IMG/VR virus record: IMGVR_UViG_2609460236_000001
Location: 15,766 to 79,765 of that record
Length of the DNA stretch: 64,000 nucleotides
DNA from: a virus
Taxonomy: Duplodnaviria > Caudoviricetes
Strand: one strand, 5' to 3'
Part shown: positions 5,884 to 61,218 of the stretch, piece after piece
Layout of the letters: each line of letters opens with the position of its first letter
Position numbering within the stretch: the stretch's first letter is position 1
Position numbers and translations under genes: made by a program
The notes under the pieces: generated by a model
Seen by the model: the letters and a program-made list of their open reading frames with translations, nothing else
What the model was told of the DNA's origin: nothing
The model's database searches: none

Positions 5884-6146
5884 GCCTTCACCTTCGTGCG
5901 TCGGAGTTCATCGCGCAGGCGCTTCAGGCGCGCGATCTGCTTCTTGGCCAGTTGGCCAGAGTTGATCGTGTTCGCGACGGCCGAGTACCACGTATCACGT
6001 GAAATCGGGGACTCGGTGCCTTGGTCGTCGGCGACCTTCACGTTTGAGAACTTGCGGAGTGCTTCGCCGGTCTTGACCAGTGCGTCGACAGCTTTGGGTA
6101 CATCGGCCAGGGGGTGAGGTCTCGCCTCTGTGGTGGTGATATTCAT
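5880..6146 (-). CDS. hypothetical protein
   Basis: likely start MNITTT at 6146 (ATGA overlap). Confidence 0.6.
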   Translation of the reverse strand: MNITTTEARPHPLADVPKAVDALVKTGEALRKFSNVKVADDQGTESPISRDTWYSAVANTINSGQLAKKQIARLKRLRDELRRTKVKA

Positions 6147-6442
6147 TCTGATTCCGTACGGAAGATTCCAACTACAGCGGGCGACTCCACCGATTGCCCA
6201 AACCAGTATCCGGGATCGAGACGTGCGTTGACAAGGGCTTTTACCTCCTCCCACATCTGCAATCCCTCGTTCTGCCAAAACGGGTGATCCTGCATGCGTA
6301 TCGCCTGCTTCAGCCCGTGTGGCAGGTACTTCTCCTTCAGGTCGACAAAGGCGTTGATATCGACCTTCAGGAGCACAACAAGCGCGATGTCAACGACATC
6401 ACGGGTCTTGCCGCTCTCGGCTCGATATGCAATGACTTCCAT
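6143..6442 (-). CDS. hypothetical protein
   Basis: packed ORF. Confidence 0.6.
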   Translation of the reverse strand: MEVIAYRAESGKTRDVVDIALVVLLKVDINAFVDLKEKYLPHGLKQAIRMQDHPFWQNEGLQMWEEVKALVNARLDPGYWFGQSVESPAVVGIFRTESE

Positions 6443-6658
6443 CTATCGCATCTCGATCTTCGCGCCGTCCGGTATGTAGCCCACCGGCAGCACAAAGAAG
6501 CCCTTGATGACGCGAAGCTTTTCCAGCGTCTTCATGGTCCGAACCCACGCGTCTAGCACACACTCGTGGGTGAAATACTTCGGCTCCATGTGGTTATCCA
6601 GGTGGTGGACCTGTATCACCTGCGGCGGATTCAACAAGGTGCCCTTTTCCGATGTCAC
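6443..6658 (-). CDS. hypothetical protein
   Basis: AAGGAGG SD before GTG start. Confidence 0.6.
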   Translation of the reverse strand: MTSEKGTLLNPPQVIQVHHLDNHMEPKYFTHECVLDAWVRTMKTLEKLRVIKGFFVLPVGYIPDGAKIEMR

Positions 6659-7538
6659 GTAGTACCTCCTTTATCAGCTCGGGTTGAAAATCGATCATGT
6701 ATGGATGATTCATCACGTCCGCAAGGGTCCGCGGTTGGGTCACTTCCAACAGAGTTTCCATCAGTGCTTCACACGCATCTCGAAGGTTCTCCTCGCCATA
6801 TTGCGCGCCCCCTTCAGCTTCAGCGTCGCCGGCAGTGGGAGGTGGCACGCTGTCATGGATATGCCAGTGCGCTGGATTACAGCACAAGGTGTTTCTACAC
6901 TCATTCGTGAGTATGTACCGGTCAGACTTGTGCAAGTCCGGTGTCGCCCACTCAAAGACGATCTTGTGTACCGCCTTGCGCTTCCCTCCCCCTACCCTTA
7001 CCTGACCATATGGTGAATCTACAGTTAGTTGGTAGAAGGGAACCCACTCAGCCGTCCGCACCTTCTTCTGACGCGCACCGAGGTGTGTCTTTGGTCCCTT
7101 CCACGGCCAACACTGGTCAGGTTGGCCGAAGTTCTCTATACGCTCCTTCAGATCCTCAACCAAGGCCCCAAGATCGTGGCGCTCCTGGCCGACGAGTTGC
7201 CAGTGAGTATCGTTGCAACATAGCGTGTTACCACACCTATTGACAAGTCGATACTGTGGCTTGCCAAGCAATTCTGGGTTGGCCAGTTCGAACGTGATCT
7301 TATGGACTGTCTTCCGTCGCCCACCTCCCACCTTCACCAATCCATACGACGACACTACGGTAGATTGGTAAATGGGAACCCCTTCGGATTTCCGTATCTT
7401 CGTTACCTTTTTTCCAGCATTTGTCTTGGCCCCCCTCCACGGCCAGCACACATCAGACCGACCGAAGTTCTCGATACGGCCCTTGATGCGCCCAATCAGA
7501 TCCTCAAGTTGCGCTTTACGATCAACAATCTCACTCAT
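6594..7538 (-). CDS. protein with two tandem His-Me finger (HNH-like zinc-binding) domains
   Basis: Two copies of RIENFG..D.CWPW.G.KT...YG.V.VGGG.RK.VHKI.FE.A.P...C.NTLCCN..HW. Confidence 0.75.
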   Translation of the reverse strand: MSEIVDRKAQLEDLIGRIKGRIENFGRSDVCWPWRGAKTNAGKKVTKIRKSEGVPIYQSTVVSSYGLVKVGGGRRKTVHKITFELANPELLGKPQYRLVNRCGNTLCCNDTHWQLVGQERHDLGALVEDLKERIENFGQPDQCWPWKGPKTHLGARQKKVRTAEWVPFYQLTVDSPYGQVRVGGGKRKAVHKIVFEWATPDLHKSDRYILTNECRNTLCCNPAHWHIHDSVPPPTAGDAEAEGGAQYGEENLRDACEALMETLLEVTQPRTLADVMNHPYMIDFQPELIKEVLRDIGKGHLVESAAGDTGPPPG

Positions 7539-15678: not shown

Positions 15679-16041
15679 TCAGTGCAGGAACGCCCTCGAA
15701 GCGATCTGCGCAGCGGTCGCGAGAATCGTCAAGGTCACGAGCCACGTGACCATCGAGGTTTTCGCTTTCTCGATTTCGACACGGAACTCTCCACGCGCCT
15801 CCGAGAGGCCGAGCTTCATGTCTGCGCGGACGTTGTCGATCTCACGACGCAGATCGGTACGCGTCGCGTCGACCTTCTGCTCAACCGCCGTCTGCATGTT
15901 GAGTAGGTCTTGCTTTGTCGCCAAGGTCTGGTCGATCGCATCAGCCAGCGCCTCGGCTTGCATCACCGCAGTCTCGCGCGGGACCCCACCTTGTTCGAGG
16001 CGCTTGACGTAAGCCAAGGTGTCGAAAGCGACAGACATCAT
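15679..16041 (-). CDS. DUF1640/CCDC90-like coiled-coil membrane-anchored protein
   Basis: AFDTLAYVKRL..GGVP...A..QAEAL, coiled coil, C-terminal hydrophobic anchor; AAGGAG SD. Confidence 0.8.
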   Translation of the reverse strand: MMSVAFDTLAYVKRLEQGGVPRETAVMQAEALADAIDQTLATKQDLLNMQTAVEQKVDATRTDLRREIDNVRADMKLGLSEARGEFRVEIEKAKTSMVTWLVTLTILATAAQIASRAFLH

Positions 16042-47830: not shown

Positions 47831-50800
47831 ATGATGATTGTCGAAGAAGAATGCCCCCTCCAGAGCATCCGCGGTGCGAGCGGCGGTGGCTCCAGCTCGC
47901 CCACGCGAACGGACGACAACCTGTTTTCGAGAGACGTCGTCGAGATCGTCCTTGGTCTTTCTCAAGGCCCGATTCGAGGACTGGTCGACGGCATGAAGTC
48001 CTTCTCTGTCGGCGGGACGCCGCTCATGTCGCAGGACGGATCGCTGAACTTCAGTTCGTTCAACCTCGGCGTCAAGCTCGGCACCACGCATGACTCCGCA
48101 GTCAACTACGTCCTGGGCGGCGAAAGCTCGAACACCCAGGTCGGCACGCGTCTATTTCAAGGGACGTGGGTCAACCGCCAGACTGACCAAGCGCTGAAGG
48201 GAGTGATCGACCAACTGCAAGTACGGATGCAGTTCAATGTCCTCTACGTCCAAAACAACGACGGCTCTTTCAACAACACGGCACGCTTCCGAATCCAGTA
48301 TCGTCCGGCATCCAGCTACGCTGCGTGGTCAGAGGTTCAAGGTGGATTAATCAAGGTGACGGGTAAAACCACGAGCGGCTACATGGTCGACTACTCGTGG
48401 GACGTGCCTCGCATCAGCGACAACTGGGTGATTCGGGTACTGAAGGAGAACCCGGACGCCAGTACGACCGAATTTTGTGACCTCACCTGGGAAAGCTTCC
48501 AGATGGTCACGAAAGGGAACCGCTCGTACAACCAAGTCGCGCTCCTCCATCTGGTCGCCAAGGCGACGAGCCAGTTCAGCTCGATCCCGGACTTCTCAGG
48601 CATCTACGACGGGCTGGAGATCCTGGTTCCTACAAACTACAACGGTGACATGCACTCGTACGACGCGAGCGGCCCGTGGAATGGAACGTTCAAGCTCGCG
48701 TGGACGAACAACCCGGCGTGGATTCTGTACAACCTCATCATGAATCCCACATGGGGTCTCGCGAAGTATTACCCCTGGATCACCTGCAACCGATTCGACT
48801 TCTACGACGCGGGGCGCTGGTGTGATGAGATGGTCCCCGACGGCATCGGGGGCTGGCAACCGCGCTACACCTTCAACCTCGTCCTGACCGACCAGCAGAC
48901 TGGCCTCGACATGTTGAAGTATGTCGCCGGCAGCTTTGGCGCGGTCATCTTCGACGACGCCACCGGCATGGTTCACCTGCGTGTCGACAAGTGGGAAGAA
49001 CCTACCTTGATGTTCACGCCCGAGAACGTGACGCCCGAAGGCTTCAGCTATACGTTCACGGATATGTCGACGCGCTACAACGACTACGAGGTTCAGTTTG
49101 TCAACCCTGACATCGACTGGAACGTCGACCATCGGCGCGTCCCGTACGAAGAGCACATCGCGCTCAACGGCAGCATTCCGTACCAGTTTCAGGCGATCGG
49201 CTGCACGAACGAGCACGAAGCTGTTCGTCGCGCCACCTATCAGCTGATCACGTCGACCACCGAGTGTGCCACGGTGTCATTCATGACCGCGCGCCTCGGC
49301 CGCGTCATCGACCCGTACAAGCCGATCTACGTCGCAGACCCGATCACCGGCTGGTCGTCCGGTGGTCGCATCAAGTCCATCTTCAACAACAAGATCTATC
49401 TGCGAGATCCGATCTACTTCACGATCAACCAGAACTACAACCTGCGACTTCAGTCCGTCGATGGATTGTGGAACCTCGTTGTGAACCCTGGCAAGACCGG
49501 AGCCGCAACCGAGCTGACGATCGTGAGTGGCGTCACTCCGCCGAACATTCCGGATCGCACCGTCTTCACGATTGAAGACAACGGCGGATTCGGCATCGCG
49601 AAGCCATTCCGTCCGATCGCGATCGAGCCAGTTGACAATCAACCTGACACCTACAAGGTTACAGCTGTCGAAGTCAACGTCAACAAGCAGGCCGCAGCGG
49701 ACAACTGCGTGCCGATCGGCAGCAAGCAATATTCGTTTAAGAACCCGCTGATCCCTCCTCCGCCGACGAACATGGTCATGGCTTCCGGGACGGAGCAACT
49801 GATCATCGGTCAGGACGGTTCGATTCAGGCGCGCATCCTCGTGTCTTGGGACCCACCTGCAAACGCGATCGTCAAGCGCTACGACGTGCAGTGGAAGGAA
49901 AGTTCACAGTCGACATGGCTCACCGCAAGCACGACGGGTGAAAGCCTATTCCTTGGTCCTTGTAAGAGCGGCGTTGATTACGACATCACCGTGTGGGCAA
50001 TCAGCACGTTCGACTACCGCAGTTCGCAGCTTTCTGCATGGAACTACCGATGCGTCGGCAAGGATGACCCGCCGAGCAACGTGACGAACTTTAACGTCAT
50101 ACGCCGTCAGAACGACATTCTGCTGAAGTGGGACCCGATCCCCGATCTCGACCGCGCCGGTTACGAGATTCGCCTTGGCACGTCGTGGGAAACTGGAACG
50201 GTTCTCGTGACTGACTACGCAGCGACGCAGTTCGCATGGACGACGGATACCGGAGGGGCATACTCGTTCATGATCCGCGGGATCGATACGAGCCATAACT
50301 TCTCGCCGATCCCGACGATCCAGACTATCGCGTTATATGGCCCGTCCTCAGTACGTGGCGTCATTGCTGTTCAGTCGTCGAACCGGATCGAGATGAGCTG
50401 GAAACCGAACCCGGAAGACAATATTCTCGACTACGAGATCCGTGAGGGTGACTCGTGGGCGACCGCAGTGTTCGTTGCGAAGACGAAATCTACAAGCTTC
50501 GGTTTTACGGCCGGCGCAGGTGGTACGCGCAAGTTTTGGCTGAAGTCAATTGCCGCCCCTGGCATCTACTCGGACAAGGCAACCTTCGTCACTACCGACG
50601 TCGCTCAACTCGACAACACCAACATCGTGTACGAGTCGGACGAACTGTCGAAAGGCTTCACCGGCATGCGGTACAACATGGTTGTCTACGGCGACTCTTT
50701 GCGAATGGACGATGGAAAGGCGAAGGCAGAGTACATCTTCAGCGTGTCGCTCCCGACGAGCTTCCGTGCGCAGAATACGCTCTTCATCGGTCTCGACGCG

Positions 50801-51439
50801 ATCGTCGACTTCACCATGCGGTGGAACGACGCAACCTTCCCGTGGGACGACGCCAGAGCGCAGATGCCGTGGGCCGCAGCGGGTGACATCTCGTCGATCA
50901 ACTACCGTGCCGAGATTGCCACGCTCACTGCATTACCGCCTGACGTGCTTTATGCGATCAAACTCGACAATACGCTCGGATTCTCCGGCCCCGGTGAGGA
51001 CGGATCGGTCACCGAGCAGCAGACGGTTAGCTACCGCGCTGGCAAGTATGGCTCGGGGCTTTTCGTGCAGACTGCGCCGCTTCAACCGGTGCCGACTCGC
51101 GTGACGTTCGACGCTAATATTCCGAACGTGTTCTCGACTAGCTTTTGGGTCATTCCATACGACGACAACGACGATACCTGGTCCAGCTTCTGCGGACGGA
51201 ACGGCGCGCAAATCACGATCGGCTATCAAGCGTCCACGATGAGTGTCTATGCGATCGACAACAACGGTAAGAAGATCTCCGTCCCGATCGATCTGGAAGT
51301 AGGCGAACGCTACTTCGTCGCTATTTCTCAGGATACAAACAAGCGCACGTTGTACGTCGGCCGAGAAGGCGGATCGGTATTCCGAGGGACCCTCGATGTC
51401 CAGGGTATCGGACAAACCATCAACTACAGTTTGTACTGA
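47831..51439 (+). CDS. tail tip / host specificity protein (lambda gpJ-like) with FN3 repeats
   Basis: LSQGPIRGLV, WNGTFKLAWTNNPAWILY, PRYTFN; FN3-like repeats. Confidence 0.9.
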   Translation: MMIVEEECPLQSIRGASGGGSSSPTRTDDNLFSRDVVEIVLGLSQGPIRGLVDGMKSFSVGGTPLMSQDGSLNFSSFNLGVKLGTTHDSAVNYVLGGESSNTQVGTRLFQGTWVNRQTDQALKGVIDQLQVRMQFNVLYVQNNDGSFNNTARFRIQYRPASSYAAWSEVQGGLIKVTGKTTSGYMVDYSWDVPRISDNWVIRVLKENPDASTTEFCDLTWESFQMVTKGNRSYNQVALLHLVAKATSQFSSIPDFSGIYDGLEILVPTNYNGDMHSYDASGPWNGTFKLAWTNNPAWILYNLIMNPTWGLAKYYPWITCNRFDFYDAGRWCDEMVPDGIGGWQPRYTFNLVLTDQQTGLDMLKYVAGSFGAVIFDDATGMVHLRVDKWEEPTLMFTPENVTPEGFSYTFTDMSTRYNDYEVQFVNPDIDWNVDHRRVPYEEHIALNGSIPYQFQAIGCTNEHEAVRRATYQLITSTTECATVSFMTARLGRVIDPYKPIYVADPITGWSSGGRIKSIFNNKIYLRDPIYFTINQNYNLRLQSVDGLWNLVVNPGKTGAATELTIVSGVTPPNIPDRTVFTIEDNGGFGIAKPFRPIAIEPVDNQPDTYKVTAVEVNVNKQAAADNCVPIGSKQYSFKNPLIPPPPTNMVMASGTEQLIIGQDGSIQARILVSWDPPANAIVKRYDVQWKESSQSTWLTASTTGESLFLGPCKSGVDYDITVWAISTFDYRSSQLSAWNYRCVGKDDPPSNVTNFNVIRRQNDILLKWDPIPDLDRAGYEIRLGTSWETGTVLVTDYAATQFAWTTDTGGAYSFMIRGIDTSHNFSPIPTIQTIALYGPSSVRGVIAVQSSNRIEMSWKPNPEDNILDYEIREGDSWATAVFVAKTKSTSFGFTAGAGGTRKFWLKSIAAPGIYSDKATFVTTDVAQLDNTNIVYESDELSKGFTGMRYNMVVYGDSLRMDDGKAKAEYIFSVSLPTSFRAQNTLFIGLDAIVDFTMRWNDATFPWDDARAQMPWAAAGDISSINYRAEIATLTALPPDVLYAIKLDNTLGFSGPGEDGSVTEQQTVSYRAGKYGSGLFVQTAPLQPVPTRVTFDANIPNVFSTSFWVIPYDDNDDTWSSFCGRNGAQITIGYQASTMSVYAIDNNGKKISVPIDLEVGERYFVAISQDTNKRTLYVGREGGSVFRGTLDVQGIGQTINYSLY

Positions 51440-51440
51440 T

Positions 51441-51902
51441 ATGGCACACGTAATTTCCGATATCACCATCTCGAAGAAGGTGCTCGACGACAACGGTTTC
51501 CTCGCACTGCTCACGTCAGACAGCCCGACTGGCTATGCGCCATTTCAACCGTTCGTGCAGGGTGACTACGAGTATCAGACTGCCCTCTTTCGCATCTCTA
51601 TGAACTCAACTTCCGGCGACCGTGGGGTGATCAACAAATTGAGCGTTGTCGTCGACGTTCCCGATATGTTCGACAGCGGCGACAACATCATCGACGGGAC
51701 GACACCGACGCGAATCTTCTTCACGCGTCCATTCCACGTCGCACCGAAGGTGACCCTGACCGTGCAAAGCGCGAGCGACCCATGCACCGCGAAACTTGTC
51801 GCTGGCTCGGTCACGCGCACGTATTTCGACTGCTTCCTTGAAAGGGCTTCCGATAAGGCGAAGATCGACGGCGCTTTGACATGGGCCGCTCACGCATACT
51901 GA
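51441..51902 (+). CDS. tail tip-associated protein
   Basis: FTRPFHVAPKVT, WAAHAY resemble a gpJ C-terminal segment. Confidence 0.65.
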   Translation: MAHVISDITISKKVLDDNGFLALLTSDSPTGYAPFQPFVQGDYEYQTALFRISMNSTSGDRGVINKLSVVVDVPDMFDSGDNIIDGTTPTRIFFTRPFHVAPKVTLTVQSASDPCTAKLVAGSVTRTYFDCFLERASDKAKIDGALTWAAHAY

Positions 51903-51937
51903 AATCCCTTGGGTGCTCTGGCCAGCGCTCGTAAAAT
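51901..51937 (+). promoter_or_regulatory. sigma70-like promoter TTGGGT-N17-TAAAAT for the fibre/rSAM unit
   Basis: intergenic, 27 nt before ATG 51964. Confidence 0.55.
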
Positions 51938-51963
51938 TCGTCTTGCTAACGGACACCACCACG

Positions 51964-53442
51964 ATGCAGAACTACACACAGATTCCCGACAGCCAGCGGG
52001 TCTCCGACTCGCTCGCGCCGCTGCTCAACAACGACCTCACGGCGATCTCGCGTAACTCTGGCGACTCCTTTCCGATCACTGGACTCCAGATCGGTATGCC
52101 GTACCTCAGCACGTCGCAGAACAAGCTCTTCCGGCTTACGAGCCTGACGCCGGTCACATGGGTGGTCGAAATCGACTACAACCGCTCGATCGCATATCAG
52201 GACAACCTCGATCAGGTTGCGGCTTCCGCAAACAGCCGCGTCCTCAAAAGCGGCGACAATATGACCGGCCCGCTCACGCTCTCGGGAGATCCGTCTCAAG
52301 CACTGCACGCCACGCCGAAGCGGTACGTTGACGCTCAGGCGCAGGCTGCAACCACCGCAGCGAACAACCGCGTGTTGCGCTCGGGCGACCAGATGACCGG
52401 CCCGCTCACGCTCTCGGGCGACCCGTCACAGCCCTACCACGCCGCGACGAAGAACTACGCCGACTACCTCTACAACTCACTGAACAACGCCAAGCTCGGT
52501 CGCAACGGCGACACCGTGTCCGAGCTGTACAACAACGGCTGGTTCCGTTCGAACGGACAGGTCGGCTGGTACAACCAGACGTACGGTGGCGGCATCCACA
52601 TGACCGACACCAGCTATGTCCGCGTATATGGCGGCAAGGGCTTTGCGACCGACACGCATACGCTCGAACAGGGCACGGGCGGGATCTGGACATCGCGCTA
52701 TGGCTGGTTGGAGAACTACTTCGCCGGAAAGGGTGCGGAAGACCGTCTCAATTCGGTTGGCACGACCGATGGCGGCGACGGATGGCACCCCGGAGGCTGG
52801 CCGTGGATCCCAAACGGCGTGATTGCACCACAGTCCTTCTACCTCCAGCGCTCGGGAAATCAAGTCCAGCTCGTGCGCGTTTGGGGCAACTGCAACTGCA
52901 ACTGCGCATGCACGTGCTTCCCGGCCGGCACTCGAATCATGATGGCTGACGGGAGCTGGAAGTACGTCGAGCAGATCCAGATTGGCGACATCGTCATGAC
53001 ACCGCTTGGGCCGGAAGCCGTGCTCGACGTCGAGACCCCACTGCTGGGCGATCGGAAGATGATTTCGTTCGAAGATCGTTCATTCTTCTGGACCGATGAT
53101 CACGCATTCTGGACGCGTCGCGACGGCGTGCAGTCGTTCGGCGTAGTAGACAAACAGTCGTGGTTGCGTGGCGTCGAACTGGGTGTAGTAAAAGGCCTGC
53201 CGAACAATGATGACGTTCGCGTTCTGGACGACCGCTGGGATGAATTCGCCCACATCGACGGCTGGCAACGCAAGCGCGTGATGAAACACGACATGAACCG
53301 CAATACGAAGGTCTATCTGCCGATCGTCGGTGGATGCCACATGATCATCGCCGAAGGTTATGTTGTCTCGGCCGGCGCGAATGGGTATGACTTCGATTAC
53401 AACACCTTCGAATGGAAAGGACTCAGCCATGCTGGTGCATAA
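51964..53442 (+). CDS. tail fibre with Cys-rich segment and C-terminal Hint (intein-like) autoprocessing domain
   Basis: 2x GD.MTGPLTLSGDP...HA..K.Y.D fibre repeats; GWFRSNG..GWYN.TYGGGI.M.D adhesin motif; NCNCNCACT then CFPAGTRIMMADG (Hint block A, Cys at 52915), TDDH (block B). Confidence 0.88.
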   Translation: MQNYTQIPDSQRVSDSLAPLLNNDLTAISRNSGDSFPITGLQIGMPYLSTSQNKLFRLTSLTPVTWVVEIDYNRSIAYQDNLDQVAASANSRVLKSGDNMTGPLTLSGDPSQALHATPKRYVDAQAQAATTAANNRVLRSGDQMTGPLTLSGDPSQPYHAATKNYADYLYNSLNNAKLGRNGDTVSELYNNGWFRSNGQVGWYNQTYGGGIHMTDTSYVRVYGGKGFATDTHTLEQGTGGIWTSRYGWLENYFAGKGAEDRLNSVGTTDGGDGWHPGGWPWIPNGVIAPQSFYLQRSGNQVQLVRVWGNCNCNCACTCFPAGTRIMMADGSWKYVEQIQIGDIVMTPLGPEAVLDVETPLLGDRKMISFEDRSFFWTDDHAFWTRRDGVQSFGVVDKQSWLRGVELGVVKGLPNNDDVRVLDDRWDEFAHIDGWQRKRVMKHDMNRNTKVYLPIVGGCHMIIAEGYVVSAGANGYDFDYNTFEWKGLSHAGA

Positions 53443-54139
53443 AGCCCTCATCCCCGACGACTTGACTGAAGACCAGCGCGCTCAAGCTTACGGCATCGCC
53501 ACGGTCATCCCTACCCCAACTGGCTTCACGATGCAGTCGACGGACCTGAGCCTGTACTGGCAGTTCGACTTGACCAAGGTCGATCATGGCAATGACGTCC
53601 TGCATCTCGTCCGTACCCGAAATGGGCAGTACACCATCGTGTGGGGCAGCGACATCCACGAGTCGAAGGACAGCATGTCGTCTGCCCTGCTCCGCAAGAA
53701 CATCGACTCGTTCATGCCGATCGTGCTCATCGGCATCAACGAGGCGAAGGACGACTACACTGCGGTCTTCTTCTGCTTCACCATCGAGCCAGCCAACCCG
53801 ACCCCGTACATCGACACGACGGATGAAGGCGGTGACATGGTCCTCAAGCGGCTCATGCCAACGATTGCACCGATCATCGACCGCTGGCATGCGAAGCACA
53901 AGCTGCTGAAGAACATCAAGACGAATGACGCACTCGCCGCGCTCGAAGCACAGGTAGACCTGCTCACGGAGTTGCTGTTCACCATCCTGCCGGCCGGCGC
54001 GTTTCCATCTGATAAACGGCAGAAACTCCTTGACGCTGGTGTGCTGAAAATGAAGGATGGGGACCTCGCCTTCAACGACATGGTCGCCTTCAAGACGGCG
54101 CTCCGCGCGCTTCAGGCGACGTATCTAGCCACCAGATGA
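53429..54139 (+). CDS. hypothetical protein coupled between fibre and radical SAM gene
   Basis: start MLVHK overlaps the fibre stop; ATGA overlap with rSAM. Confidence 0.7.
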   Translation: MLVHKALIPDDLTEDQRAQAYGIATVIPTPTGFTMQSTDLSLYWQFDLTKVDHGNDVLHLVRTRNGQYTIVWGSDIHESKDSMSSALLRKNIDSFMPIVLIGINEAKDDYTAVFFCFTIEPANPTPYIDTTDEGGDMVLKRLMPTIAPIIDRWHAKHKLLKNIKTNDALAALEAQVDLLTELLFTILPAGAFPSDKRQKLLDAGVLKMKDGDLAFNDMVAFKTALRALQATYLATR

Positions 54140-55488
54140 CCACCTTTCGCCTGAAGACGGTCGACGCCTCTGGCGTCGGCCGCGACTTTTTTTACAACAA
54201 CCAGCGCAGCACCCTCACCGACGACCGCGGACTCGACGTGGTGACCGAACGTCCGAGCGAGCCACGCGCGCCGGCCGCGCACCCTGGCCACAAAGACCGC
54301 GTCATTCGCACGCTGAAGGTCCAGCTGGGCCTCTCGTGCAACTACAGCTGCGACTACTGCTCGCAACGATTCGTACCGCACGCGGACCAGACCAACCCCG
54401 GCGACGTCGACGTGTTCATGTCCCGCCTCATGGCGAACTGCTATCTCACCGAGGACGCGACGGTCGAGTTTTGGGGTGGCGAACCGATGGTGTACTGGAA
54501 GACGCTCAAACCGCTCGCAGAGAGGCTGCGGATGCGTTACCCCGGCATCACCCTTCGGATGATCACGAACGGCTCCCTGATCGACCACATGAAGGCCGGA
54601 TGGCTCATTTCGATGGGGTTCACGATCGGCATCTCGCACGACGGACCAGGGCAGAAGGCACGCGGTCAAGACCCCCTCGATAACCCCTTGACGCGCGAAG
54701 CGATCCTCATGCTGTACCAGCGGCTGCGTCCACTGAACCGGATCTCTTTCAACGCGATGCTGCATAGGGACAGCACGTCGCGGCGCGCGGTGCGCGACTA
54801 CTTCATCAAGCTGACGGGCGACACCGACGTGCCGATCGGCGAAGGCATGTTCGTCGACGCGTACGACGAAGGTGGCCGCTCGATGTCGTTTCACGACGCG
54901 CACGAGCATGTCCGCTACCGCGCTCGCGCCTTCGACGAGCTGAAGAGCGGTAATGCGCTCAACTTCGACAGCGTCACGCAGAAGATCGTGGACTTCGGCG
55001 AGTCTGTGGTCACTCGGCGTGAAGCACGCACGCTCGGTCAGAAGTGCGGCAGCGACCGCGCTGACACGCTGACGATGGATCTGAAAGGCAACGTGCTGAC
55101 GTGTCAGAACGTGTCGGCAGTAGCGGTAGCGCCGAACGGCCAGCCCCATCTCGCCGGCAACGTGCAAGACATGAACGCAGTTCAGCTCAAGTCCTCGCGC
55201 CACTGGTCGACGCGAGAGCACTGCAACGCGTGCCCCGTACTTCAGCTCTGCAAGGGCAGCTGCATGTTTCTCGAAGGAGACTTGTGGGATGTCACCTGCG
55301 AGAGTGCATACAGCGACAACGTCGTATTCCTTGCCACGGCGCTCTATGAGCTGACTGGCTGCACCCTTCAGCGTATCGAGCCGTTGACCGGCACGCTGCC
55401 TGAGCATCGCCAGATCGTCTTCGGACCTCTGGCCAACAAGCGGACCACCACCCGCAAAATCATTCAGATCAAAACGGAAACGCCATGA
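54136..55488 (+). CDS. radical SAM enzyme with SPASM domain
   Basis: CNYSCDYC (54337-54360), FWGGEP, TNGSL, ISHDG; C-terminal KCG...GNVLTC...CNACPVLQLCKGSC...C. Confidence 0.93.
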   Translation: MTTFRLKTVDASGVGRDFFYNNQRSTLTDDRGLDVVTERPSEPRAPAAHPGHKDRVIRTLKVQLGLSCNYSCDYCSQRFVPHADQTNPGDVDVFMSRLMANCYLTEDATVEFWGGEPMVYWKTLKPLAERLRMRYPGITLRMITNGSLIDHMKAGWLISMGFTIGISHDGPGQKARGQDPLDNPLTREAILMLYQRLRPLNRISFNAMLHRDSTSRRAVRDYFIKLTGDTDVPIGEGMFVDAYDEGGRSMSFHDAHEHVRYRARAFDELKSGNALNFDSVTQKIVDFGESVVTRREARTLGQKCGSDRADTLTMDLKGNVLTCQNVSAVAVAPNGQPHLAGNVQDMNAVQLKSSRHWSTREHCNACPVLQLCKGSCMFLEGDLWDVTCESAYSDNVVFLATALYELTGCTLQRIEPLTGTLPEHRQIVFGPLANKRTTTRKIIQIKTETP

Positions 55489-55826
55489 ACGATCAACAAA
55501 CCACTCCCCTGATGAACGAAGGCCAGATGATGCACCACGTGCTGACGCTACAGCGCAACGAGCTGGCCGATCGCCTCGCTCACGCAAGCGTCGCAGCTGG
55601 TCAAGCTGAGCAACAAGTGCAAGCACTGGCCACGGCGAATGCAACCATGCAATCTGCGCTCGACGAGGCGAACGCTGCACTCGAAGCGACGAAGAGTGCG
55701 CTGGTCGCGAGCCAGTCGCGCGCTGACCAGCTTCAGAAGAACCTCGACGACGCCAACCGGAAGCTTGCTGCGCAGCAGCGACCGATTGAAGGCGCGCCCA
55801 CGTCGGTTGATCCGATACCCGCATAA
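55485..55826 (+). CDS. coiled-coil protein
   Basis: A/Q-rich heptads; ATGA overlap with rSAM. Confidence 0.7.
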   Translation: MNDQQTTPLMNEGQMMHHVLTLQRNELADRLAHASVAAGQAEQQVQALATANATMQSALDEANAALEATKSALVASQSRADQLQKNLDDANRKLAAQQRPIEGAPTSVDPIPA

Positions 55827-55842
55827 GCACGCGAATAGGTGC

Positions 55843-55867
55843 TAAGTGAACCAATTAGGTTCACTTA
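55843..55867. promoter_or_regulatory. perfect inverted repeat TAAGTGAACC-N5-GGTTCACTTA upstream of lysis promoter
   Basis: direct reading; followed by AAAACTCT TTGTGT-N18-TAAAAT (55889-55918). Confidence 0.6.
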
Positions 55868-55951
55868 TCATTTCCTGTGCAAAACTCTTTGTGTCTGCGT
55901 AAACCCCAACCTTAAAATTCTCGGCACTCACCACCACCACACGAGTCCGAG

Positions 55952-56485
55952 ATGTCTATTACGTCCGACCAGCTTCGGAAGATCTGGACGCACGCACCGA
56001 TTGACAGATGCGCTACGTACGCACCCCTGCTCTCGGACGCGATGGCGAAGTTCGAGATCGATACGCCGGAAGAGATCGTCGAGTTCCTGGCTCAGATCTC
56101 GCACGAGTCAGCCGAGGGGCGCTACACGCTGGAGATCGCCAGCGGACAGGCATACGAGGGACGCAAGGACCTCGGCAACACGCAACCGGGCGACGGCGTC
56201 CGCTACAAGGGCCGTGGCCTCATCCAATGCACCGGTCGGACCAACTACCTGCTGATGGGTGTGCTGCTTGATCTTGACCTGATCGCGCACCCGGAGCTGC
56301 TTGAGCAACCGCAGTACGCGTGCCTCAGCGCCGCCGCCTTCTGGTGGAACCACAAGCTCGACAACCTCGCGCTGAAGAAAGACTTCATTGCGGTCACGAA
56401 GGTCATCAACGGCGGCACGAACGGTCTCGCGGATCGTCAGGCGTATCTCGTGCTCGCACGAAAGGTAATTCCGGGAGCCGCCTAA
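55952..56485 (+). CDS. endolysin, glycoside hydrolase family 19
   Basis: FLAQISHES, YKGRGLIQ.TGR.NY, TKVINGG.NGLADR. Confidence 0.92.
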   Translation: MSITSDQLRKIWTHAPIDRCATYAPLLSDAMAKFEIDTPEEIVEFLAQISHESAEGRYTLEIASGQAYEGRKDLGNTQPGDGVRYKGRGLIQCTGRTNYLLMGVLLDLDLIAHPELLEQPQYACLSAAAFWWNHKLDNLALKKDFIAVTKVINGGTNGLADRQAYLVLARKVIPGAA

Positions 56486-56898
56486 TGACGACGCGCAACG
56501 GAGACTTCTTCGCGCGCCTCGGCTTCACGACATGGGCGCTTGCGGTCGTCGTGCTTTCGATGTGCCACGGAAGCTCGATCCCAGCCGCGACGATGCAACA
56601 CGGCGGCTGGTTCTTCACTCTCCTTCTGCTGGTTGCCGGCGCGCTCCTGCTGGTCGACATCGTGGTCAATGACTTGATGCCGGACCGATACGTTTTCACG
56701 TGGGGATTGAAGTGGCGTCATTGGGTCTACCCGATGGCGTCCTTCTCGTTTGCGTCTCATCTGTTCGTTGCTGAGCAGGCTTACAAGAGTGTGCAGATCA
56801 GCACACTCGTTCTCTATGGCTCGATGGCTGTGTTTGGCCTGACGCTGAGTTTTCGAAATCTTTTTCACGTACGGGGTCGAGCGTGCAGCGAACGATAA
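56485..56898 (+). CDS. multi-TM membrane protein (holin/antiholin candidate)
   Basis: start MTTRNG (TAATG overlap); about 4 hydrophobic segments. Confidence 0.6.
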   Translation: MTTRNGDFFARLGFTTWALAVVVLSMCHGSSIPAATMQHGGWFFTLLLLVAGALLLVDIVVNDLMPDRYVFTWGLKWRHWVYPMASFSFASHLFVAEQAYKSVQISTLVLYGSMAVFGLTLSFRNLFHVRGRACSER

Positions 56899-57278
56899 AG
56901 GTATGGGCGATGTTTCTCGCCCTCACGTGGTCTCTCGTCACCTACGCGGCTACGCGTAGTGACGTGTCTTTCGGGCGCGATCTGACCAGCATCCCGATCA
57001 TCGCGTACGTGATCACGGTCATCCTCAGCAGCATCGGTGGAGCAGCGTCGACGCTGCAAAAGCTGTCGAACGCCGAGGATCTGTCGCGCTGGAAGCTGCA
57101 CGTCGCGCGCGACATGGTCTCCTCGATCGCAGCCGGCCTGCTGATGTTCTTCATCGCCGAATCGTTCCGCTGGGATTCCGCTCAAGAGGCCGCGGCCATC
57201 ACTGTCGCCGGCTATGGCAGCTCGAAGCTGTTCGACGCGGTCATGACTCGCATTCTGCAAAAGGTGGACACCGCATGA
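56883..57278 (+). CDS. holin candidate
   Basis: hydrophobic segments, position before the spanins. Confidence 0.65.
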   Translation: MQRTIKVWAMFLALTWSLVTYAATRSDVSFGRDLTSIPIIAYVITVILSSIGGAASTLQKLSNAEDLSRWKLHVARDMVSSIAAGLLMFFIAESFRWDSAQEAAAITVAGYGSSKLFDAVMTRILQKVDTA

Positions 57279-57790
57279 AGCTGACCGCCATTGCCGCGCT
57301 CTGCGCCGCTCTCGTGAGCGGCGCTGGCGCGTTCTACTTCACCCGCGACCACTACGTCGCGCTCATAGCCGAGAACGACGATCGACAGCAGAAGGCCCTG
57401 CGTGCCGCTCAAGAGCGAGCGGACGCAGCAGCGGCCTTCGCTACCACGACGTCGAACCTGCTGGTCACGCAGATCTCGACCGACTACGAAAGGAAGCTCA
57501 ACGATGCGAAGTCTCAAGCTGACCGCGATATTGCTGCTGCCCGCGCTGGTGCTCTGCGCCTGCGCGACCGAGCCGCAACCTGTGGCAATCAACCGTCCGA
57601 AAGTGCAACTGGCCCCGGTGCCGGCGTATCTGCTGACACCGGAGGAGCCGAACTTTCGCTGCCGGCTACTGAATTTCTTCTCGGCGAAGCCGGTCGAGCT
57701 GACGAAATCGTGCTCAGACTCAACGCCTGCGAAGCCGTCGTCCGGAGCGACCGAGACGTTCTCGCTCGTCTGAACGTGGGTGAGCAATGA
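57275..57790 (+). CDS. Rz-like inner membrane spanin
   Basis: N-terminal TM, coiled coil, G.LRLR, L...A..AD.....L.AC. Confidence 0.85.
   Translation: MKLTAIAALCAALVSGAGAFYFTRDHYVALIAENDDRQQKALRAAQERADAAAAFATTTSNLLVTQISTDYERKLNDAKSQADRDIAAARAGALRLRDRAATCGNQPSESATGPGAGVSADTGGAELSLPATEFLLGEAGRADEIVLRLNACEAVVRSDRDVLARLNVGEQ
57504..57773 (+). CDS. embedded Rz1-like outer membrane spanin lipoprotein
   Basis: +1 frame inside Rz; AAGGA SD; lipobox LCAC; Pro-rich. Confidence 0.8.
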   Translation: MRSLKLTAILLLPALVLCACATEPQPVAINRPKVQLAPVPAYLLTPEEPNFRCRLLNFFSAKPVELTKSCSDSTPAKPSSGATETFSLV

Positions 57791-58404
57791 TTGCGGCTTC
57801 TCTCCCCCTCGCCCCGACCAATCCGGACGGCCAACCGCTCATCCTGATGATGAGTCCGGTCTATAACAACCTCGGACAGTTGACCCCGATGAAACTGCTT
57901 TACGGCCGTGGAGCGCCGGCCAACAACGTCGGCAACGACGGCGACTCGTACATCAACCTGGACAACAGCTTCATGTTCGGCCCGAAGACGGGCGGCGTCT
58001 GGCCGAGCGGCTACAGCATCAAGGGCGACAAGGGCGACAAAGGCGATACGGGTGACGTCAACAAGACGCCGATTGCGCGCATGAACGTGACCGGCAACGG
58101 TCTTGACCTGGACCTGTCGACCGGAATCGGCTGCTTCAACGCGACGATCAACTCCCCGCAGACGGCAATCACGATCAGCAACCCGGCAACGGATGCGAAC
58201 TTCGTGCGCTCGTTCTCGCTCGTGCTCAAGCAAGGCACCGGCTCGAACAAGGTCAGCACCTGGCCGGCAATCATCAAATGGAACGGTGGCGTCCCGCCCG
58301 TCCTGTCGTACGCGCAAGGCGTGAGCGACGCGTTCATGTTCGAAACCTATGACGGCGGCAAGTCGTACGTAGGCTACTTCGTCGGCAACAACATTCCTGC
58401 GTAA
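57787..58404 (+). CDS. tail accessory protein with short collagen-like repeat
   Basis: GAP....G.DGD.Y motif, KGDKGDKGDTGD, C-terminal WP..IKW.GG..P.LS domain. Confidence 0.65.
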   Translation: MIAASLPLAPTNPDGQPLILMMSPVYNNLGQLTPMKLLYGRGAPANNVGNDGDSYINLDNSFMFGPKTGGVWPSGYSIKGDKGDKGDTGDVNKTPIARMNVTGNGLDLDLSTGIGCFNATINSPQTAITISNPATDANFVRSFSLVLKQGTGSNKVSTWPAIIKWNGGVPPVLSYAQGVSDAFMFETYDGGKSYVGYFVGNNIPA

Positions 58405-61218
58405 ATGAACCGGCTCTACCTGTCCCGTCAGTCCCTCAACCAGCTCGCCGCGAATGCGAACTCGATGCTGGACGGCCTCATGCAGTTCGTCGATCGCCAC
58501 ACGAAAGACGACCCGGACACGGGTCAGGACTACATGATCGTCAACAGCAAGAGCGTGCTCTGCAACAACATGCACTATGAGACGGGGAGCGTCTGGTACA
58601 CCCCGAACGGCACGGCCACGACCGAAGGTCAGGCTCTGTACATCCTTGGCCTCTACTACGCATGGAAAGGCACCGGCAAGCGCTCCTACCTCGACCGCGC
58701 CGTGCGCGCGATCGACGCCTACCTGGACCTGTTCTACGCCGGCCAGCCGACGCCGACCACGCCACAGATCTACCGCGCGAACTGGATCATCAACGGCAAG
58801 CGCCCATTTCAGGCGTTTGGTCCTCTGGACCCGAACAACCCGGACAGCCCTGGCGGCAAGGGTATCAAGGTGCAGTTCACGAATGGGGTGGGCCAGATCC
58901 CGACCGGTGATCCGTACAACGGCCAGCTCGTTACGCGCCTGTATTCGGTCTACAACGGGAAGCTCTCGTACGACTCCGTGCGCTCGGGCGTCAACGCAGG
59001 CGGCACGGTCTACCCGTTCGCTTCGTATGTGACTTACGACGGCGTGCGCCACAACGCAGATCAGGACGCGATCGACCCGAACGGCGACACACCGGGAACG
59101 ATCCGCCTCGTCGACACGACGTTCACCGGCACGGCGCTGGTGAACTACGCGAACATGACCGGCCCGATGATCGGCCGCAACCAGCCGTTCGATGTCTGGC
59201 CGATCTGGATGGCGTTGTCTCCCGACCAGTGGGGCAACTCGATCGACTCGGAGCAGTGGTTCGCCGAGGCCTGCTACTTGATGTTCCAGGAGACTGGCAA
59301 CCCGCGCTACTTCAACGCGTTCAATGCCTCAATCTACACCATCAACGACGCGACCGACCTTCAAGCCGACGGCTTCTATTTTCGGCAGGACACGAAGGCT
59401 GCTGACCCTTTCAACGTGGGCATCGCGTACGACTGGGAATACCTCGGCGACGCGAAGGCGACGCTTAACCGCGACAGCAGCGGCTACATCCACGTGTCGA
59501 AGACCGCTGAATCGAACGTCAACAAGGAGAGCACGGTCGCGCTCGAACAAATCGCGGTCTACACTCGCATCGACTCCAGCAAGACAGCGATGGTCAACAC
59601 CATCGGCATCAACACGCCGAAGGCGCGCATCGAGTTCCTGACGCGGATGAAGACCGACCTCCTGAGCGACGGCCGGCAGTATCGCTATGCCCTGCCCTCG
59701 AACGGTAGCGTGACGCCGACGCCGATGGTGGTCCCGTTCGGCCAGATGGTCACGGCCACGCAATCGGACGGCCAGCAGCACGCCATGCTCGACGGTTCGA
59801 GCTTCGTGCCGTACGGCAACGCCGGCTACACCACCACGTACGAGGGCGGCATCCTCGGCGACCCTGGCCGCGCTGACTGGATCGGCACGGCCAACATCAA
59901 TGACGGCACTTCTGGTGTCGTCGCCGGTTTCTGGCTCGCAACACCGACCACCCGCGCCCTCACGTCATTGACATACCGCGTGAACAACGGCGAGATCTGG
60001 TTGAAGGTCACGGACGCGCTTGGCAACAAGTATCAGCGCGTGCTGCCCTCCGGTGGCTGGACCACGCTGCCGCTGAGCTGGTCCGACTTCACGCTCGTGC
60101 CGAATCAGGCGGCAGGCACGCCGGCCGCACCGACGCCGAATGGCGCGATGACGCAGATCGAATTCATCACGAACAACGGCCAAGGTGGTTCGATCTCGAC
60201 GTACTGCTGGGGCGAGATCCCGCAGAAACTCGTGTCGGTCAACGACTACTCGACCGAGTGGTTCATCCATGTCAAATGCCAGCCGGCAATGGAGATGGCC
60301 GTGGGGGACGTGTATGCGTCCAACCCTGCTCCGCTCGCGTTGAAATACACACCTGGAGTGCTTCCCTTCACGACGAAGTATTCGGTCTCGCGCGCACGGA
60401 AGGATTACTGGCGGGGAACACCGTACACCGGCTACCAGTATGGGCCGATGTGGGTACTCTCGGGCAAAACCCAGTATTACACCAACTGCATCGCCTTCTA
60501 CCACGACGCGCAAGAAGCATACGCGAAGAAGATCGGTGTCATGGGTCCGGTTGCGCCGCTCTATGTGTGGCCGCGCTACGACCAGCTCGATCAAGGCCCC
60601 ATCGACACGTTCGCTTGGGGAACGGACAAACCGTACCCGTGGGCGGGATACAACGCGCGCGCTTTCTTCGCAGGTTGCCGGATGTGGCAGTTGCTCGTGC
60701 AGCAAGGCTTCCCTGTCGATACCCGGCTCATCACGTTTTGCGAGCGCTACGCGAAGTATCTGGCTGACTTCCAGGATGCAAACGACAACCTGACACCGAC
60801 CGAATTTCCACCCGACAAGCCGGCGTTCAACGATGACTACGACCACACTGGCCATATGACGGCGCTGTATATGGCAGGTGCCGTCTGTATGAAGTTTGCC
60901 GGTTCGAAGTCCACCTACGTCGATCGCGTGATCAACGGCTGCATGGTCGAATTCACGCGCACGCAGGTGATCGAAGACCCGGCTGGTCCCTACTCCGACA
61001 TGAGCGGTGCGTATTCAAGCTGGTCGCACGGCCACTACTTCTACGGATTTTGGGCGGGCGAGATCATGCGCGCGCTAGGACTCTTGATGATGTGGAATCT
61101 GCGCAATCAGCAAGGTGCAGGCATTCAAATCGAGGAATCCAACATCCTGCTTGAAAACGCATCCGGACATATCGCCGCAGAAGACGGCACCTTGATCAAA
61201 ACAGAGACCTCCCTATGA
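58405..61218 (+). CDS. large glycoside hydrolase-like protein (GH8-like alpha/alpha barrel with inserted beta domains), putative virion depolymerase
   Basis: ATTEGQ (58615-58632) and IDSEQW resemble GH8 catalytic segments; aromatic-rich; flanked by fibre genes. Confidence 0.55.
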   Translation: MNRLYLSRQSLNQLAANANSMLDGLMQFVDRHTKDDPDTGQDYMIVNSKSVLCNNMHYETGSVWYTPNGTATTEGQALYILGLYYAWKGTGKRSYLDRAVRAIDAYLDLFYAGQPTPTTPQIYRANWIINGKRPFQAFGPLDPNNPDSPGGKGIKVQFTNGVGQIPTGDPYNGQLVTRLYSVYNGKLSYDSVRSGVNAGGTVYPFASYVTYDGVRHNADQDAIDPNGDTPGTIRLVDTTFTGTALVNYANMTGPMIGRNQPFDVWPIWMALSPDQWGNSIDSEQWFAEACYLMFQETGNPRYFNAFNASIYTINDATDLQADGFYFRQDTKAADPFNVGIAYDWEYLGDAKATLNRDSSGYIHVSKTAESNVNKESTVALEQIAVYTRIDSSKTAMVNTIGINTPKARIEFLTRMKTDLLSDGRQYRYALPSNGSVTPTPMVVPFGQMVTATQSDGQQHAMLDGSSFVPYGNAGYTTTYEGGILGDPGRADWIGTANINDGTSGVVAGFWLATPTTRALTSLTYRVNNGEIWLKVTDALGNKYQRVLPSGGWTTLPLSWSDFTLVPNQAAGTPAAPTPNGAMTQIEFITNNGQGGSISTYCWGEIPQKLVSVNDYSTEWFIHVKCQPAMEMAVGDVYASNPAPLALKYTPGVLPFTTKYSVSRARKDYWRGTPYTGYQYGPMWVLSGKTQYYTNCIAFYHDAQEAYAKKIGVMGPVAPLYVWPRYDQLDQGPIDTFAWGTDKPYPWAGYNARAFFAGCRMWQLLVQQGFPVDTRLITFCERYAKYLADFQDANDNLTPTEFPPDKPAFNDDYDHTGHMTALYMAGAVCMKFAGSKSTYVDRVINGCMVEFTRTQVIEDPAGPYSDMSGAYSSWSHGHYFYGFWAGEIMRALGLLMMWNLRNQQGAGIQIEESNILLENASGHIAAEDGTLIKTETSL

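Follow-up and report, generated by a model that had tools for sequence, protein, structure and literature searches.

What a radical S-adenosylmethionine (SAM)/SPASM enzyme might be doing beside a phage tail fibre is the question raised by a group of genes in the IMG/VR virus record IMGVR_UViG_2609460236_000001 (Duplodnaviria; Caudoviricetes), of which we analysed positions 15,766 to 79,765 (one stretch of 64,000 nucleotides, referred to below as the window; coordinates are positions in this stretch). The stretch is a prophage within a host genome of 8.6 Mb, and its nearest named proteins come from Burkholderia. Tail fibres decide which bacteria a phage attaches to and, to our knowledge, their maturation is thought to use folding, chaperones and self-cleavage, not dedicated redox enzymes. 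In the window the fibre protein carries an alternating run of Asn and Cys residues, NCNCNCACT (the Asn-Cys ladder), immediately ahead of a C-terminal Hint domain, and the enzyme is encoded two genes downstream on the same strand. Here we report that such ladders and homologues of the enzyme accompany one another in phage genomes, whichever of the two is taken as the starting point. We think it probable that the locus is a Burkholderia-type prophage module for the maturation of a virion protein, in which the enzyme would modify the ladder, most likely through the formation of Cys thioethers.

The fibre gene is predicted to run from 51964 to 53442 on the + strand (492 residues from the ATG at 51964). 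The longest open reading frame (ORF) begins at a GTG at 51913 (51913..53442, 509 residues), and the ATG is probably the start because of the alignment with gp028 of Achromobacter phage JWF and nine relatives. The protein is a predicted phage tail fibre, as judged by family matches (phrog_16641, tail fiber, 1.8e-9; Pfam Shufflon_N, 28.9 bits, above the cut-off of 27.5) and by its position after a J-like gene, the same order as in JWF. The ladder (52888..52914, + strand) was read directly from the DNA and was also returned as a tandem-repeat call; its first 18 nt (52888-52905) are a perfect (AACTGC)x3 hexanucleotide repeat, followed by GCA TGC ACG and then by the TGC codon (52915-52917) of the first Hint residue. 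Since the Pfam Hint match also begins at this Cys, the claim of an earlier reading of the bare sequence (the original prediction) that the run lies directly 5′ of the Hint nucleophile was borne out. In-frame slippage at the hexanucleotide repeat could alter the length of the ladder, which ranges from 3 to 10 Cys among relatives. In the host genome, taken as six-frame segments of at least 100 residues (10.7 million residues), a run of the form ([N/D]C)x3 occurred only once, in the window.

The relationship between ladder and enzyme was determined initially from the enzyme side. Among 163 loci with an enzyme homologue (164 less L004, which is the window's own region), 119 extended 3 kb or more upstream of the enzyme gene, and in 114 of these a (Cx)≥2C run was encoded by an ORF on the same strand no further than 4.5 kb upstream. 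Two of the 114 were chance CLCCC matches (L011 and L013), with the true ladders 5.3-6.1 kb upstream, and in two other loci (L003, which is phage RP12, and L050) the ladder lies 4.8 and 5.9 kb upstream, beyond the 4.5-kb limit. Counted on true (Asn/Asp/Ala-Cys)n ladders, 116 of the 119 enzyme loci have a ladder ORF upstream, although most of the loci come from two related host orders and so the counts do not represent independent events. The co-occurrence of enzyme homologues with upstream Cys ladders, with or without Hint, that the original prediction had proposed as a check was therefore found, and the converse count given below agrees with it.

For the converse count, a DNA pattern for NCNCNCxC was searched against the viral collection; at least 120 loci matched, of which 80 were listed. 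Thirty-three of the 80 hold a C-terminal ladder ORF, defined as one with at least 90 residues before the ladder and a stop within 25 residues after it. All 20 of those with at least 3.5 kb of downstream sequence carry an enzyme homologue downstream (25-56% identity, among the matches listed), and 14 of these 20 contigs were new relative to the enzyme-first set; where less than 3.5 kb was available downstream (13 loci), the enzyme was seen in 6, again among the matches listed. The other 47 of the 80 were spurious low-complexity frames, N-terminal motifs, truncated ORFs or Hint-capped forms, and 4 of them had the enzyme. Among these 47 is a different, small Cys-rich family with K-N-C-N-C-N-C-H-C near its N-terminus (L173, L174, L175, L176, L183, L199, L217 and L238), and no radical SAM gene was present in any of these eight loci, which indicates that the motif by itself has no tie to the enzyme where it is not C-terminal. 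Taken together, the two counts strongly support a two-way genomic coupling of ladder and enzyme. The coupling holds for enzymes of 25-97% identity, for four or more carrier families that are unrelated (F1, F30, F39 and F241) and for siphoviruses, myoviruses and jumbo phages, and because of it the ladder is the most likely substrate. Of the proposal that the CxCxC run is the substrate, the part that concerns association thus stood, the run travelling with the enzyme both ways, and the substrate role itself follows by inference. As far as the gene sequences indicate, the minimal conserved pair is the ladder protein and the enzyme.

Comparison of 59 distinct ladder tails showed what varies in them. 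Between three and ten Cys are present per tail (median 6); the positions between them are occupied by Asn in 59%, Ala in 17%, Asp in 14% and Gln in about 1%, and Asn precedes the first Cys in 57 of the 59. In 49 tails no more than 8 residues separate the ladder from the stop, in another 8 the protein runs on for at least 100 residues and 2 are intermediate; the Hint cap is a minority form, seen in 8 of the 59. The usual state of the ladder is thus a free C-terminus, which the Hint domain of the window would yield by self-cleavage. A C-terminal core encoded near the modifying enzyme, the arrangement of peptides that are ribosomally synthesised and then modified post-translationally (RiPPs), is accordingly what was seen in all three counts (116/119, 20/20 and 49/59). 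An enzyme tree was built from loci with an intact enzyme ORF of at least 400 residues and an upstream ladder ORF (118 rows, 108 of them distinct), and the Hint-capped ladders fell in at least two separate clades: the window's own clade (7 rows, support 97), and that of L044, L070 and L121 (support 99), which is nested in a mostly uncapped clade of 88 rows (support 95). In a third, distant Hint case (L227, radical SAM enzyme 34% identical) a 275-residue ladder and Hint protein is encoded beside a 104-residue uncapped ladder protein.

Most ladder carriers belong to fibre family F1 and stand in the order J-like protein (F3), F6/F5, F1. Among named phages, JWF has the same arrangement as the window, with J, gp027, the Hint protein gp028 with a ladder, gp029, the radical SAM enzyme gp030 (56.6% identical to that of the window), gp031, a terminator and the endolysin; the gp028 ladder is longer, with six Cys ahead of the Hint Cys and N, D and S at the intervening positions. 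In the Ralstonia myovirus RSP15 a ‘side tail fiber’ gene is followed, three genes later, by the radical SAM gene (46.6% identity), and no Hint domain is present. Carriers other than fibres were also seen. F39 is a Cys/Asn-rich family with two ladder segments (L137:6479-6934, L142:6552-6947, L157:4815-6023, L144:3025-3930 and L145), the gene for which adjoins the enzyme gene, 54-67 nt upstream of it in L137 and L142 and on its downstream side in L144 and L145. The L144 protein continues for about 174 residues beyond the ladder, and these gave no Pfam match. A few loci (L116, L117, L127 and, by record title, L095) are labelled Akkermansia, Bacteroidetes or Verrucomicrobia. The enzymes of L116, L117 and L127 group with Limnohabitans or Comamonadaceae loci (L117 and L115 share one small clade, with end branches of 0.0023 and 0.01), and the odd labels of these three are probably the result of metagenome binning error and not of true host range.

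The Hint domain (52915..53439, + strand) comprises 175 residues at the very end of the protein, and nothing is encoded after it. The Pfam gathering score was not reached (Hom_end_hint 9.5e-7 and 29.5 bits, below the cut-off of 32.1; Vint 16.9 vs 27). The N-terminal Cys nucleophile (C318) and T377 and H380 of the block B TxxH motif (residues 377-380 of the 492-residue protein) were invariant in 10 sequences. An AlphaFold model of the 492-residue protein was confident in the Hint part only (predicted local distance difference test, pLDDT, of about 63-86 for residues 321-400 and of about 76-86 for 421-450; confidence fell at two breaks, 402-415 and 455-458). A fold search with the Hint model returned 6tmm (BIL2) at the top (Z 14.2, root-mean-square deviation 2.7, 142 aligned residues), followed by the bacterial intein-like (BIL) domain of C. 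thermocellum (2lwy, Z 12.8), inteins and hedgehog (1at0, Z 11.4), and all 26 chains with Z of 8 or more were Hint or intein. By its modelled fold the domain is thus of BIL type, with the same conserved Cys1 and TxxH as the BIL and hedgehog Hint domains; it differs from them in capping a phage fibre straight after a Cys ladder, and in its sub-cut-off Pfam scores. Because no sequence follows it, only cleavage on its N-terminal side is possible, and such cleavage is predicted to free the ladder as the fibre C-terminus. The idea that Hint cleavage exposes the fibre tip therefore fits with the tails that already end in a ladder, cleavage itself being a prediction. In the Hint variants the thioester at the last ladder residue could serve ligation or cyclisation besides hydrolysis. 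Self-removed C-terminal domains have a parallel in endosialidase- and T5-type fibres and tailspikes, in which C-terminal intramolecular chaperone domains are removed autocatalytically after folding. Those domains are not of the Hint type, cleave at Ser and leave no enzyme-modified tail.

The enzyme gene (54136..55488, + strand) encodes 450 residues, which match phrog_1802 at 1.8e-59 and Pfam Fer4_12 at 24.1 bits (cut-off 22), with a Pfam Radical_SAM score (26.6) just below the cut-off of 29.5. The CX3CX2C motif (C68, C72 and C75) and the seven SPASM Cys (C304, C323, C363, C366, C372, C376 and C388) were invariant in 27 homologues. The SPASM auxiliary-cluster region, C304 to C388 (55045..55299, + strand), has the form C-x13-G-x4-C ... 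C-x2-C-x5-C-x3-C ... C, and residues 304-378 match TIGR04085 above its cut-off (31.3 vs 27). The radical SAM/SPASM identity given in the original prediction was thereby confirmed, and on these motifs the protein is best described as a radical SAM/SPASM enzyme that belongs to no curated family among those tested. Its best NCBIfam matches were QhpD (TIGR03906, 5.2e-13), the geopeptide maturase, to which no chemistry is assigned (9.1e-13), and PapB (NF047865, 1.3e-12; alignment over enzyme residues 58-377), and profile matches to the PDB were 8vpo (6.2e-15, core only), CteB (5wgg, 8.4e-12, core only) and the anaerobic sulfatase-maturating enzyme (anSME) 4k37 (2e-9). Homologues are numerous: of 8,000 candidates that were scored, 2,823 proteins had E≤1e-10, at least 591 of 593 pattern-matched viral stretches were enzyme loci, and in species-representative genomes 172 of 271 stretches carried the enzyme, mostly in Limnohabitans and other Burkholderiales.

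These findings suggest the following sequence of events. The side tail fibre would be made with the C-terminal ladder and the Hint domain, which would remove itself by an N-S acyl shift at Cys1 and leave the ladder as the fibre C-terminus, the state that most relatives encode directly. The radical SAM/SPASM enzyme would act on the ladder by abstracting hydrogen from an Asn, Asp or Ala side chain, the carbon of which would then couple to a cluster-bound Cys thiolate, and the resulting ranthionine-type thioether crosslinks may stiffen the fibre end or lock it covalently. The 236-residue protein encoded between fibre and enzyme would be an accessory, perhaps an assembly or presentation factor, in the place held elsewhere by family F4. 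For the wider group, it seems to us an even call whether phages of Burkholderiales and other Pseudomonadota use a radical SAM/SPASM enzyme, often together with 2-oxoglutarate (2OG) oxygenases, to staple the ladder by thioethers, possibly between chains.

Cys-to-Asn/Asp/Ala thioethers are favoured because of the NCBIfam kinship of the enzyme, the precedents of CrpC and NxxcB and the residues found between the ladder Cys. PapB makes Cys-to-Asp/Glu thioethers. QhpD, of the QhpD/QhpC pair, makes the same type of link (PMC13692751, in the text available), so that two of the three best NCBIfam matches are thioether makers. According to the available portion of PMC9389541, NxxcB joins the Cys sulphur of NxxcA to the beta-carbon of Asn and tolerates Ala, Gln or Asp as acceptor, a set that matches the intervening residues of the ladder. 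The likeness rests on the description of the chemistry and not on sequence kinship, and the accessible text describes NxxcA as a short streptococcal RiPP with one NxxC, whereas the phage ladder has 3-10 Cys at i/i+2 on a virion protein. A second precedent is CrpC from Methanococcus voltae, a radical SAM/SPASM enzyme with three clusters that introduces several ranthionine links into CrpA, a Cys-rich protein from the same biosynthetic gene cluster, of which the trackable modified peptide is the C-terminal one (PMC13692751, in the text available). CrpC differs in being archaeal and cellular, in the presence of a RiPP recognition element and in its motifs (CAGM, CAVD and CPLV); here too the likeness is one of description, and the word ‘phage’ occurs 0 times in the available text of PMC13692751.

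Several observations weigh against a thioether-forming enzyme that acts on the ladder. The QhpD and PapB scores fall far below the family cut-offs (48.5 bits vs 453 and 47.6 vs 340), making the window enzyme a member of neither family, and the best PDB profile match, 8vpo, belongs to a paper on a cyclopropyl synthase, so far as the accessible part of that paper indicates. No Pfam or NCBIfam match to a RiPP recognition element (PqqD-like) was obtained in the enzyme or in the 236-residue protein, and only about 55 residues precede the radical SAM core. The i/i+2 spacing of the ladder Cys differs from the NxxC of NxxcA and from the CrpA motifs (PMC13692751, available text), and O2-dependent 2OG oxygenases are present in most relatives, so that the final product may be more complex. 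The fibre body (residues 1-316) was modelled, as a monomer, with a pLDDT below 50. Finally, three of the 119 enzyme loci (L002, L064 and L130) lack an upstream ladder ORF; in L002, which is RSP15, the C-terminus of the ‘side tail fiber’ retains a two-Cys N-C-x-C remnant only, and L064 and L130 have no ladder at all. The original prediction had taken radical SAM homologues without Cys-rich fibre neighbours as evidence against itself; these proved not to be widespread, being limited to the two loci with no ladder, and the expectation that the neighbour is always a fibre did not hold, as the carriers include other proteins. Inspected by eye, these two loci looked like decayed prophage remnants: L064 has no intact enzyme ORF and L130 has an F1 fibre with an aberrant C-terminus.

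The main rival is that the enzyme acts on the same ladder by other radical chemistry, which we consider unlikely but worth keeping in view; candidates are conversion of Cys to formylglycine or thioaldehyde (as by anSME), C-C or C-O crosslinks, epimerisation, or a step shared with the 2OG oxygenases. In its favour are the alignment with anSME 4k37 over enzyme residues 70-381, the SPASM domain included, which reflects a common radical SAM and SPASM architecture, one GenBank record of JWF in which the gene is labelled ‘anaerobic sulfatase-maturating enzyme’, and the 8vpo match mentioned above. Furthermore, no curated family cut-off was reached, and so the sequence does not fix the chemistry. Sulfatases that receive formylglycine carry the motif C/S-x-P/A-x-R. 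The ladder does not contain it, all 10 PF00884 matches in the genome sit on contigs other than the window's, in agreement with the original prediction that no sulfatase is nearby, and TIGR03942 scores 43.3 bits against a cut-off of 349.45; on these grounds the enzyme was not placed in the anSME family. Against other chemistry in general stands the composition of the ladder, in which N, D and A make up most of the intervening residues; these are reported as acceptors for a Cys-Asn thioether synthase (PMC9389541, available portion).

The three remaining explanations are less likely. In the first, the ladder would form a needle that binds a metal or an Fe-S cluster at the axis of a fibre trimer, comparable to the HxH iron sites in T4 gp37 but built from Cys; the enzyme would deliver the cluster or metal, or have some other task, and leave the ladder covalently unchanged. 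The strict C-x-C-x-C alternation would place all Cys on one face of a strand, fibres are usually trimers, and a metal site had also been raised in the original prediction. We regard it as improbable, since the enzyme has the complete CX3CX2C and SPASM make-up of a peptide- or protein-modifying enzyme, invariant in 27 homologues, since we know of no radical SAM/SPASM enzyme that is a metal chaperone, and since ladders are also found on proteins of 65-110 residues, which need not be trimeric fibres.

These small proteins bear more directly on another idea, in which the fibre-like protein would serve only as leader and the ladder as core of a RiPP-like peptide that is released (a signal, a toxin or an anti-defence agent). 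A C-terminal core behind a long ‘leader’ is the layout of RiPP precursors, and in jumbo phage RP12 (NC_041911) an unannotated ORF of 65 residues (L003:990-1187), located between ORF074 and ORF075 and upstream of the radical SAM genes ORF076, 077 and 079, ends in NCNCNCACT plus 4 residues and looks like a RiPP-type precursor; similar small ladder ORFs occur in L193 and L202. In L059 (4587-5499), L062 and L073, two or three tandem paralogues of about 95-110 residues each end exactly in a ladder (three in L059 and L073); F4, a 2OG oxygenase and the enzyme then follow, and the paralogues may represent either a heterotrimeric tip or multiple precursors. As an account of the module a released peptide is nevertheless very improbable, because the Hint domain would cut after the ladder and not before it, so that the ladder stays on the fibre, because most carriers are F1 fibres in the tail order described above, and because no protease or exporter was seen among the window module and the accessory families scanned, which make up only part of the genes in the loci. 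The last possibility, that the enzyme is an unrelated passenger with a host or nucleic-acid substrate, accords with the frequent presence of extra genes near tail fibre and lysis genes and with a 236-residue protein that provides no link, but is close to refuted by the co-occurrence with ladders across enzyme identities, carrier families and phage backgrounds. We therefore return to a ladder-modifying enzyme as the preferred explanation.

If the enzyme modifies the ladder, the genes between the two might contribute. In the window this position is filled by the 236-residue protein (family F15; 53429..54139, + strand), for which no Pfam, PHROG or NCBIfam match was found; its AlphaFold model (pLDDT 64) matched known folds no better than Z 5.5, over a helical hairpin, and there was no hit in the ESM Atlas. 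These searches gave no fold, family or profile link that would point to the role of recognition factor or chaperone put forward in the original prediction. A profile search of 1.84 billion representatives gave 416 relatives at E≤0.001, which (in the 150 listed) are almost all of 200-290 residues with some shorter fragments. One relative, found when 5 of the 150 listed were scanned against Pfam and 3 of those against PHROG, is fused to DUF4376, which matches tail PHROGs, and this is a hint at a tail link rather than a function for F15. In 118 loci, with genes called as greedy longest ORFs, F4 (about 275 residues) was present between ladder and enzyme in 80 and F15 in 22; two more F15 genes, those of the window and L007, were added by hand. 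The two families were never found in the same locus, and an hhalign comparison between them gave a probability of 0.05%. For F4, the ESM Atlas gave only weak leads to Big_1 Ig-like domains (score 0.78 vs the 0.9 level). One to three genes for 2OG-Fe(II) oxygenases (F2, phrog_81 at 8e-13; F22, Pfam 2OG-FeII_Oxy_3 at 1.7e-8) lie between the ladder and enzyme genes in 79 of the 118 loci (for example, L089:6444-7001, and L042:5544-6122 and 6119-6820), in which O2-dependent and radical SAM enzymes consequently share a module. The window module has F15 only, with neither F4 nor a 2OG oxygenase.

The module ends with a gene for a 113-residue protein (55485..55826, + strand) that has weak coiled-coil-type matches only. 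From the ORF coordinates, the four genes are co-directional and overlap by 14 nt (53429/53442), 4 nt (ATGA at 54136-54139) and 4 nt (ATGA at 55485-55488), so both the order tail fibre-Hint, 236-residue protein, radical SAM/SPASM enzyme and coiled coil and the overlapping starts and stops were as originally described. Of the ‘four-gene unit’, then, the anatomy was correct, but conservation as a unit was not seen, for the coiled-coil family has only 3 members in the sampled loci and its gene does not appear to be a conserved part of the module. The palindrome proposed to close the unit is real: the stem-loop (core 55843..55867, + strand, wider fold about 55827-55885) folds at -24.2 kcal/mol (z = -6.5), and none of 200 shuffled sequences folded as well. 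It has no T-run and was absent from the terminator list of the signal scan; phage JWF has an annotated terminator at the equivalent position after its module. The promoter-like element at 51909-51937 did not survive analysis. It reads TTGGGT-17-TAAAAT, with 8 of 12 consensus positions (counted by hand), it was not among the sites of the promoter consensus scan, which gave 2 sites over 15 kb where shuffled sequence predicts 4.0, and it is no better than chance. An Rfam search of 51000-57000 gave no match.

Upstream of the module lie the J-like central fibre gene (47831-51439; phrog_31, 9e-152) and, between it and the ladder fibre, a gene for a protein of 168 residues (51396-51902). The latter resembles H-type lectins only weakly (6.2e-4, 20.3 bits, under the cut-off of 24). 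Its family, F5, counts 51 members in the loci sampled, and these are usually encoded immediately 5′ of the ladder fibre. On the 3′ side of the stem-loop are a GH19 endolysin gene and then the remaining lysis genes. A second fibre set was found 3′ of the lysis cassette (57787-61218), with a 205-residue protein that contains a collagen-like G-D-K/G-D-T stretch (phrog_9017, tail fiber, 1.3e-24) and a 937-residue tail protein (phrog_2871, 2.8e-236), and hence the lysis genes are flanked by two fibre modules, as they are in JWF.

The literature that we searched contained no report of a phage fibre, or of Asn-Cys ladders, as the target of a radical SAM enzyme, and in the portions available of three papers related to JWF (PMC9959647, PMC9228384 and PMC7996906) the term ‘radical SAM’ occurs 0 times. 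The maturation of Cys-rich proteins by radical SAM/SPASM enzymes is itself known; what would be new here is the proposed target, a phage fibre that is sometimes capped by Hint. With more than 2,800 enzyme homologues, more than 590 viral contigs and 172 hits in species-representative genomes, the module is widespread, and since the cultured phage JWF carries the same one, the proposal is directly testable. If true, this would be the first case of a phage fibre modified by an enzyme in RiPP-like fashion. Should the ladder prove to be crosslinked, such fibres would call for caution when they are engineered or expressed in the absence of their enzyme, the ladders would form a large new class of protein substrates for radical SAM/SPASM enzymes, and the phages concerned would possess a covalent device for stabilising their fibres.

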